NCBI GenBank assembly: GCA_951406725.2
Contig: OX597839.1
Span: 15,252,001-15,316,000 of the forward strand
DNA from: Octopus vulgaris
Taxonomy: Eukaryota
Length of the DNA stretch: 64,000 bases
Reading direction: 5' to 3'
Made by a program: the position numbers and the translations under genes. Positions within the stretch are counted from its first letter, which is position 1. Each line of letters opens with the position of its first letter. The notes beneath the pieces were generated by a model. The model was not told the DNA's origin, searched no databases, and saw only the letters and a list, made by a program, of their open reading frames with translations. Shown here one piece after another: positions 2,896-3,914 of the stretch.

Positions 2896-3075
2896 CCAAT
2901 TTAGGACTGCACACGAAAAGTGGACAGTCAACATGCTAGATATAGACGTCAAATCGCCATTCTCCACAAAAGGCATTTGAAATATATATTTCAAATGTAA
3001 TAGGCCGGACTCCATGCACGCGATATTTTGGTGTCATGTTGGCATTTAGTCCAGCAAATTACATTTTATATGGGA

Positions 3076-3140
3076 CCATGCTGATGATGCTGCACTTTTC
3101 CTTGCGGAAAATAACAGCTGAAACTAAATTTAGTACATGG
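3076..3140 (+). ncRNA. Type I hammerhead ribozyme
   Basis: ccatg-CTGATGA-t gctg...cagc t-GAAA-ctaaatttag-TA-catgg. Canonical core; predicted GUA cleavage after 3135. Confidence 0.85.
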
Positions 3141-3581
3141 GTAAATATTTATTTCGTATATTTTTCACTTGTTTATTACTTTGGTTTTGTTGAGTTTGAT
3201 CTGAGAACATAAACTTTTTTGTGGAGAATGGCGATTTGACGTCTATATCTAGCATGTTGACTGTCCACTTTTCGTGTGCAGTCCTTAATTTATATATATA
3301 AATATTTTAATCTTCGGATTCTTTTTTAATATGCTAGACCACTGGTTCTAATTGATAAATATCAATTTTTACCCTAAATTTAATTTTATAAATATTTGTT
3401 CTCTAACCGATAAATTAACTGCTGCTAACTATTAGCTGCAGGCTAATTTTCTCGGGTCTCATCGCGCCAAAAGTGGTGGCATTTGAAATATATATTTCAA
3501 ATGTAATAGGCCGGACTCCATGCACGCGATATTTTGGTGTCGTGTTGGCATTTAGTCCAGCAAATTACATTTTATATGGGA

Positions 3582-3646
3582 CCATGCTGATGATGCTGCA
3601 CTTTTCCTTGCGGAAAATAACAGCTGAAACTAAATTTAGTACATGG
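3582..3646 (+). ncRNA. Type I hammerhead ribozyme (second monomer)
   Basis: Identical to 3076-3140. Confidence 0.85.
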
Positions 3647-3914
3647 GTAAATATTTATTTCGTATATTTTTCACTTGTTTATTACTTTGGTTTTGTTGAG
3701 TTTGATCTGAGAACATAAACTTTTTTGTGGAGAATGGCGATTTGACGTCTATATCTAGCATGTTGACTGTCCACTTTTCGTGTGCAGTCCTTAATTGGTA
3801 TATATAAATATTTTAATCTTCGGATTCTTTTTTAATATGCTAGACCACTGGTTTTAATTGATAAATATCAATTTTTACCCTAAATTTAATTTTATGTACA
3901 TATATATATATGTA

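Follow-up and report, generated by a model that had tools for sequence, protein, structure and literature searches.

A hammerhead-bearing, ORF-less 506-bp tandem in the Octopus vulgaris genome with a Penelope-like insertion footprint

We analysed 64,000 nucleotides of Octopus vulgaris contig OX597839.1 (hereafter the window), in which a 506-bp tandem repeat at positions 2896–3895 carries a predicted hammerhead in each unit. The locus is probably one insertion of an ORF-less, hammerhead-bearing, 506-nt non-LTR retrozyme, whose insertion into a TA tract was likely the work of a Penelope-like element (PLE) enzyme, which would have primed on both cut strands at two sites within one predicted structured RNA module. 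The class and its link to PLEs are already published; what appears new, from the literature searched, is the PLE footprint at the junctions and the covarying 3′ module. This footprint is found on an ORF-less hammerhead tandem, in the same window as an ORF-bearing PLE with a like footprint. PLE mobilisation, self-cleavage and a circular RNA are inferred for the 506 unit. The insertion and its flanks are laid out as follows.

2767–2895, no strand: left (TA)n flank.
2896–2971, minus strand: inverted cap, the reverse complement of unit positions 3723–3798 (75/76 identical); its outer end is RNA 3′ end no. 1.
2972–3477, plus strand: first full 506-bp unit, without an ORF above 99 codons stop-to-stop, 33% GC.
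2974–2997, no strand: perfect 24-bp palindrome beside the inversion junction, repeated at 3480–3503.
3478–3895, plus strand: second, partial unit of 418 bp; 3895 is RNA 3′ end no. 2.
3799–3895, plus strand: tail that separates the two 3′ ends and has no counterpart on the other side of the insertion; 89–97 nt, as TA blurs the border.
3900–4100, no strand: right (TA)n flank.

The head-to-tail repeat (2972–3895) has a period of 506 bp, and 2972–3389 matches 3478–3895 at 414 of 418 positions without gaps, giving 1.8 copies. A preliminary description, made from the letters of the DNA, had reported this 1.8-fold monomer and an inverted 76-bp 5′ cap ending at an internal TATATA, and both were borne out. 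The outer end of the cap coincides with the internal TATATATA at 3799–3806 and has an 8-nt TA match to the target. The cap carries the GG of copy 2 (3797–3798), where copy 1 has TA (3291–3292). It abuts the sense part with no TA between them, as is likewise the case in two other elements of the window, and the sense part begins 2 nt ahead of the 24-bp palindrome, which is thus set back from the junction by 2 nt. In terms of RNA, the insertion is bounded on either side by a 3′ end: position 3895 forms the right boundary and the counterpart of 3798 the left, and the two lie 89–97 nt apart. Both flanks consist of (TA)n, in which a target-site duplication is unreadable. Searching for frames around the 506-nt circle gave a longest stop-to-stop frame of 99 codons at a GC content of 33%, and the RT and GIY-YIG ORF of an autonomous EN+ Penelope-like element is absent from the insertion.

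Published PLE insertions are described with an inverted, 5′-truncated copy abutting the 5′ end, a one-sided tail and a (TA)n bias (PMC8557442), and their inverted junction often has a palindrome (PMC3846280). The claim of a retrozyme-like element with a PLE-type insertion signature gains support here from the one-sided tail and the TA target, and is further backed by an ORF-bearing PLE of the same build in the window and by head-to-tail copies of the unit elsewhere. The AT-rich (TA)n target agrees with that of a PLE-mobilised element, a non-specific property since the LINEs of the window also sit in TA. The ORF-bearing PLE (46751–47908) has an inverted cap identical at 231 of 231 positions and a one-sided tail of ~28 nt. 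Its protein contains a GIY-YIG domain (E 4.6e-6), its homologs bear RT, and 185 homologs were found at E ≤1e-20; among the 120 listed, the best is 81% identical over half the length (Octopus sinensis) and bivalve homologs reach about 55%. At 46499–48590, this 5′-truncated PLE also shows a hammerhead-like motif near 48410–48455, in which the core reads CCGAAGA, U.U is present and stem III is palindromic.

LINE and PLE pieces are packed between TA tracts throughout the window, and APE-RT LINEs are abundant. Twin priming is the concept behind a highly improbable alternative, in which a LINE acted on a multimeric transcript and base complementarity was enough to bring the second target strand onto the internal UAUAUAUA, without a PLE or a recognised RNA fold. 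The 8-nt TA match at the outer end of the cap would suit such priming, LINE ORFs fill the window and likewise sit in TA, and the geometry is feasible on a trimer or a circle with a 186-nt gap. However, inverted pairs occur in 4 of 44 TA-bounded segments, and three of these are hammerhead elements or PLEs (the 506 insertion, 1228–1823 and 46487–48590) while none is a LINE ORF segment. The other four ends show only ~2–4 nt of TA match, yet they fall at the same two places in the module, and in 1228–1823 the cap reaches across the sense 3′ end with a tail in addition, which simple twin priming does not produce. The fourth inverted pair (37859–37955/38161–38257, 93%) is non-coding and lies in the TA-bounded segment 36516–38662. 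Among other features of the window, 22713–25832 is an apparently intact 1039-codon APE-RT LINE frame with several near-identical copies, e.g. at 5919–8229; an 87-bp purine-rich minisatellite (42705–44129, 16.4 copies at 98%) lies within a LINE 5′ region; and a non-coding element of ~400 bp that contains direct repeats occurs twice, at 35687–36085 and 36516–36910, preceded both times by a TA tract.

We located a predicted ribozyme in each of the two units.

3076–3140, plus strand: type I hammerhead 1, predicted cut after 3135.
3582–3646, plus strand: type I hammerhead 2, predicted cut after 3641, 506 bp from the first.

The first hammerhead comprises stem I (3076–3080/3136–3140), the CUGAUGA core at 3081, GAAA and a GUA triplet ending at 3135. 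Stem II opens with U.U followed by 4 bp and is extended by a further hairpin, and stem III lies inside a perfect 12-nt palindrome centred on 3128/3129. Thus a canonical hammerhead occurring twice at 506-bp spacing, with a palindromic stem III and a U-U pair opening stem II, was confirmed as first described. The strict motif arose in 0 of 2000 dinucleotide shuffles of the monomer and the relaxed motif in 4 of 2000. Rfam returned no match at gathering score over the whole window, and its 68 matches up to E 10 over 1200–4400 were mostly TA noise with no hammerhead among them; the Rfam hammerhead models probably miss the motif because of its long stem II.

The cut-to-cut monomer is predicted to fold strongly, with a z of -6.4 as a linear RNA (0 of 100 shuffles as strong) and of -5.4 as a circle, 66% paired. 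In the circular ensemble stem II has a pairing probability of 0.94 and stems I and III of only 0.3–0.5. The palindromic stem III had been taken to suit dimeric cleavage, and a 12-bp self-duplex is indeed predicted at -10.8 kcal/mol; in a lone hammerhead, stem III can also close as a predicted 4-bp hairpin with a 4-nt loop. Dimeric cleavage is therefore possible in the model but not required.

Other copies of the unit were sought by aligning one monomer (3390–3895) to the contigs of 4 of 24 listed sequencing runs at ≥85% identity. Two DNA runs (two organism labels and two studies, one of them maybe the source sample) gave 1472 and 1488 matching contigs that covered 30 of 30 bins, and in both runs the joints 3895 to 3390 and 3881 to 3396/3397 place other copies head-to-tail. 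The survey is one of short contigs, with loose ends known for 24 of 205 and contig pieces for 32 of 3096, so that some copies may be joined to an ORF. Among the 24 of 205 loose ends listed, some bridge a variable stretch near 3471–3496 in further head-to-tail continuation, those behind 3811 and 3881 enter TA-rich letters, and those before 3736–3741 resemble diverged relatives. Summed contig depth over 3730–3881 is several-fold to about tenfold above the rest of the unit, a figure that is not a copy number. Two further runs, taken as possible RNA from a list that names no RNA run, matched with 30 and 78 contigs; their molecule type is ambiguous, so they are silent on expression and circles. Thus the 506 unit is a large, varied, multi-copy repeat family whose other copies are also tandem. 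An exact motif scan of metagenome and viral contigs gave no matches, and a looser motif found 14 metagenome loci, none of which has the hammerhead core and stem I, making these chance matches.

Common variants of the family have a G inserted behind 3594, which gives an extra nucleotide and G10.1, described as typical of PLE hammerheads (PMC4209133). A variant with a 2-nt deletion at 3634 leaves stem III palindromic. The 30 variant rows listed hold no substitutions in the hammerhead core or stem I, which is no evidence of constraint since ~1.4 would be expected by chance.

The locus also bears the marks of local DNA rearrangement, including a further copy of the cap.

2151–2230, minus strand: another copy of the cap, extended by 4 nt of the sense start; it was left by a local duplication with deletion and continues into a match with 5204 onward.

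The region 1965–2720 is a local duplication with deletion (1965–2230 versus 2720–2975), which repeats the left flank and the cap and then jumps to a match with 5204–5690. It omits the tandem and the neighbouring PLE piece, and is either a real rearrangement or an assembly error. Such an event lends something to a history at the level of DNA, in which slippage or unequal crossover duplicated the monomer in place, a short module fragment inserted separately and by chance abuts it as the cap, and the hammerhead persists as a passive relic. In its favour are the 4 differences in 418 positions between the copies, the one position at which the cap departs from both, and the coverage of the module fragment, which is the deepest in the unit; Li et al. 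(10.64898/2026.07.22.740005), in the text available, favour local amplification of pseudo-LTR remnants. We nevertheless consider this satellite history quite improbable: the cap abuts the sense part without TA, as in two other window elements, both outer ends lie at conserved module sites, and the hammerhead core, the stems and the whole-unit fold are intact.

Two further hammerhead elements in the window were compared with the 506 unit.

15189–16805, plus strand: 492-bp hammerhead tandem, 3.3 copies without a cap; colinear with the 506 unit and carrying the module.
1228–1823, plus strand: third hammerhead element, with sense part 1451–1832, core at 1592 and an inverted cap (1228–1450) that carries the tail; it also carries the module.

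The 492 unit has its own type I hammerhead, found by motif search. In the hammerhead register, global alignment of the 506 and 492 units gave a z of 5.8, with the same value without the hammerhead and 5.1 against 50-nt local shuffles (0 of 500 each), and of eight window segments aligned in either orientation, none but the 492 unit reached significance. The preliminary description had presented the 506 repeat as a second retrozyme-like family; it is not an independent one, as the alignment and a shared 3′ module make it a distant relative of the 492-bp tandem. The whole element 1228–1823 aligns non-significantly to the 506 unit (z 1.1), so the link between the two comes from the module, which alone gave a z of 3.7 (2 of 1000 shuffles); against the 492 unit its direct alignment gave a z of 0.66. 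Upstream of the module, the three elements align non-significantly (z -0.2 to 1.8). The one-sided tail of 1228–1823, ~88–96 nt, lies inside its inverted cap, which overlaps the sense 3′ end. This element is shorter than one unit; its stem III is palindromic, its stem II starts from A.A, its triplet is GUU and its cap spans ~223 bp. The 492-bp tandem has a very long stem II, begins 7 nt before its predicted cut site and contains a T-tract that lengthens from copy to copy.

The region shared by these elements is predicted to be a structured module of ~140 nt.

3752–3892, plus strand: structured 3′ module; helix P1 (3754–3763/3835–3844) closes a multibranch loop holding end no. 1, and hairpin P5 (3850–3879) stands just before end no. 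2.
3246–3386, plus strand: module copy in the first unit.

Folded separately, the 506, 492 and 1228–1823 sequences adopt one architecture, in which P1 and its multibranch loop are followed by a short linker and the terminal hairpin P5. Between 506 and 1228–1823, all 10 pairs of P1 are kept although three have changed on both sides and one on a single side. In the 492 unit 9 of the 10 survive, two of the changes being two-sided and three one-sided; these pairs were counted by anchor since the MAFFT alignment misplaces the 492 strand of P1. RNAalifold returned P1 and P5 unprompted, and P1 has a pairing probability of 0.83–1.0 when the entire 506-nt circle is folded. With only 506 and 1228–1823 as input, a covariance model had all three 492 copies as its next full-register matches (E 0.0044, 0.01 and 0.068) in a search with 13 matches up to E 5 and rough E-values. 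The architecture appeared in 3, 7 and 5 of 300 shuffles of the three elements, respectively, and a two-sequence pair-shuffle control of the module was non-significant (55 of 500). In family members with the frequent substitution 3843 G>A, a P1 pair would be lost unless a second change compensates.

The three elements have five RNA 3′ ends between them, and each of the five falls 6–18 nt past a conserved CCTT in the loop or 13–15 nt past the conserved ACCC that ends P5; these windows were set after seeing the data, and the ends also favour TA-like RNA. The comparison covers three families, and across them 506, 492 and 1228–1823 are predicted to share a structured module with compensatory base pairs.

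Three PLE families have ORF pieces in the window, one of them Hydra-like by its DKT motif, and we compared the 506 unit and its module with their 3′ ends. No homology was found (z ≤1.3), and the module model gave only an antisense match in the window PLEs (E 2.4). On its own, the loose fold descriptor has little specificity (it fits 105 of 12629 window slices) and did not single out a partner, and no PLE relatives with DNA context were found beyond the window. The Hydra-like PLE (52508–57964) has the DKT motif, a frameshift near 54600–54685, an Asn-rich stretch and an EN end duplicated at about 55080–55430, together with a ~2.6-kb non-coding 3′ part that has a hammerhead-like motif near 57675–57795. 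A further PLE is represented by three truncated minus-strand copies (4101–5213, 32162–34145 and 34468–35197) with a GIY-YIG end; none has an inverted cap, and they carry a small hammerhead-like motif ~110 nt from the 3′ end.

These comparisons bear on the reading of the 506 unit as an orphan pseudo-LTR tandem, i.e. the non-coding end of an autonomous, multi-repeat PLE whose copy was 5′-truncated before its ORF. PLE insertions are mostly 5′-truncated, hammerheads sit in pseudo-LTRs, and the Hydra-like PLE offers a precedent in its long non-coding 3′ part with a hammerhead-like motif near the end. Coverage of the module region is about ten times that of the remaining unit, and certain loose ends ahead of 3736–3807 extend for 255 letters (one run, among the 24 of 205 listed), from which longer relatives are concluded to exist. 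On the other hand, what precedes the unit is another unit, both at this locus and elsewhere (joints 3895 to 3390); the related 492 unit forms 3.3 copies without an ORF; the 24 of 205 loose ends listed share no single fixed exit from the unit; and the three window PLE 3′ ends lack homology to it. We therefore regard an orphan pseudo-LTR as unlikely and favour a PLE-mobilised retrozyme.

We propose that the 506 array would be transcribed and cut by its hammerheads to 506-nt monomers, which may be ligated to circles. A PLE RT/GIY-YIG protein would bind the module ~110–250 nt downstream of the cut site and cut both (TA)n strands. One target end would prime just past P5 (3895) and copy 924 nt of sense sequence. 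This part spans two predicted cut sites, so the template would be a circle, an uncut multimer or several molecules between which the RT jumped, and the 4 differences in 418 are compatible with a circular or a linear multimeric template. The other target end would prime inside the multibranch loop (3798), aided by the 8-nt TA complementarity, and copy 76 nt; an origin of this cap from a second RNA molecule is an idea prompted by one private mismatch. The two cDNAs would then be joined in head-to-head orientation at 2971/2972, to yield the inverted cap and the one-sided tail. Transcription, circularisation, protein binding and priming are steps that we infer for the 506 unit.

A bolder reading, which we offer as tentative, is that the P1/P5 fold is the RNA signal that recruits the Penelope RT and sets its start, kept by compensatory change in a superfamily of ~500-nt circular octopus retrozymes, with a PLE dimer that primes both strands and rolls round the circle. 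If true, this would give junction-level proof of who moves animal retrozymes, provide a minimal, portable PLE cargo signal and directly explain the long-puzzling inverted-repeat-plus-tail structure of PLE insertions. If the module is incidental, the 506 locus only extends a known class by a cephalopod member of somewhat greater length. With the covarying module, a concrete RNA structure and two start positions become available to the existing in vitro PLE assay, in which it can be tested what a PLE RT recognises and how inverted caps and tails form.

In that assay, as reported, purified PLE protein cuts and extends both target strands, two internal RNA start sites bound the tail, and hammerhead cleavage is unneeded for insertion (PMC11167929). 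Non-LTR retrozymes were described in 2020 with PLEs proposed as their mobilisers (PMC7229834), a hypothesis also given in PMC7761336, and a 2026 preprint reports PLE co-occurrence and pseudo-LTR homology in Xenopus, with 1 of 9 predicted retrozyme dimers cleaved in vitro (10.64898/2026.07.22.740005). The accessible text of this retrozyme–PLE work holds no insertion-junction evidence and calls the mechanism open. Our literature search, with most subscription papers, Repbase and Dfam outside its range, found no description of such a hammerhead or retrozyme family in cephalopods; the giant squid paper counts 235 Rfam hammerhead matches, with no context given in the text available. For inverted insertion structure in retrozymes or conserved PLE RNA structure, the search returned only PLE papers.

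We compared the 506 insertion to the known systems. Like metazoan non-LTR retrozymes as described (PMC7229834; 10.64898/2026.07.22.740005), it is head-to-tail and ORF-less with a type I hammerhead per unit, low in GC and highly self-paired as a monomer, and its U.U at the base of helix II is as in the axolotl HHR_Amex2. At 506 nt, the unit exceeds the 170–400 nt of the 2020 paper (PMC7229834) and falls within the 51–972 bp of the 2026 preprint. It is unlike the described non-LTR retrozymes in its cephalopod host and long, PLE-type helix II, with self-cleavage that is predicted only, and its inverted cap, one-sided tail and structured 3′ module are absent from the retrozyme descriptions available. 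The plant-type LTR retrozyme, with type III hammerheads in two LTRs and a unique core, differs from the type I, head-to-tail units seen here.

PLE-type hammerheads (PMC4209133) are described as having, like the 506 unit, a short helix I (5 bp), a long helix II and a palindromic helix III, and the common 506 variants share their extra nucleotide after position 9. Helix III of the 506 unit (4 bp with a 4-nt loop) is long enough to close in the monomer, unlike that of minimal PLE hammerheads (PMC4209133). Non-autonomous Chlamys PLEs such as MRC1 (PMC8557442) resemble the 506 family as ORF-less, pseudo-LTR-forming, multicopy head-to-tail elements that are attributed to PLE machinery. They have 3′ ends similar to those of autonomous partners and mostly lack hammerheads in the description available, whereas the 506 unit has a hammerhead and no partner seen in the window.

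EN+ PLEs (PMC8557442; PMC3846280; PMC11167929) share with the 506 insertion a partial tandem, an inverted 5′-truncated copy, a one-sided tail, a palindrome at the inverted junction, a TA target and 3′ ends downstream of the hammerhead. The insertion differs from them in having no RT/GIY-YIG ORF and in its tail of ~90 nt, compared with the published 30–40 nt. One of its start sites has clear TA complementarity, whereas PAc is reported to start without homology (PMC11167929). Lastly, the start sites of the 506 insertion are placed in a predicted multibranch fold, while those described for EN+ PLEs lie in the ORF or in an AC-rich stem-loop.
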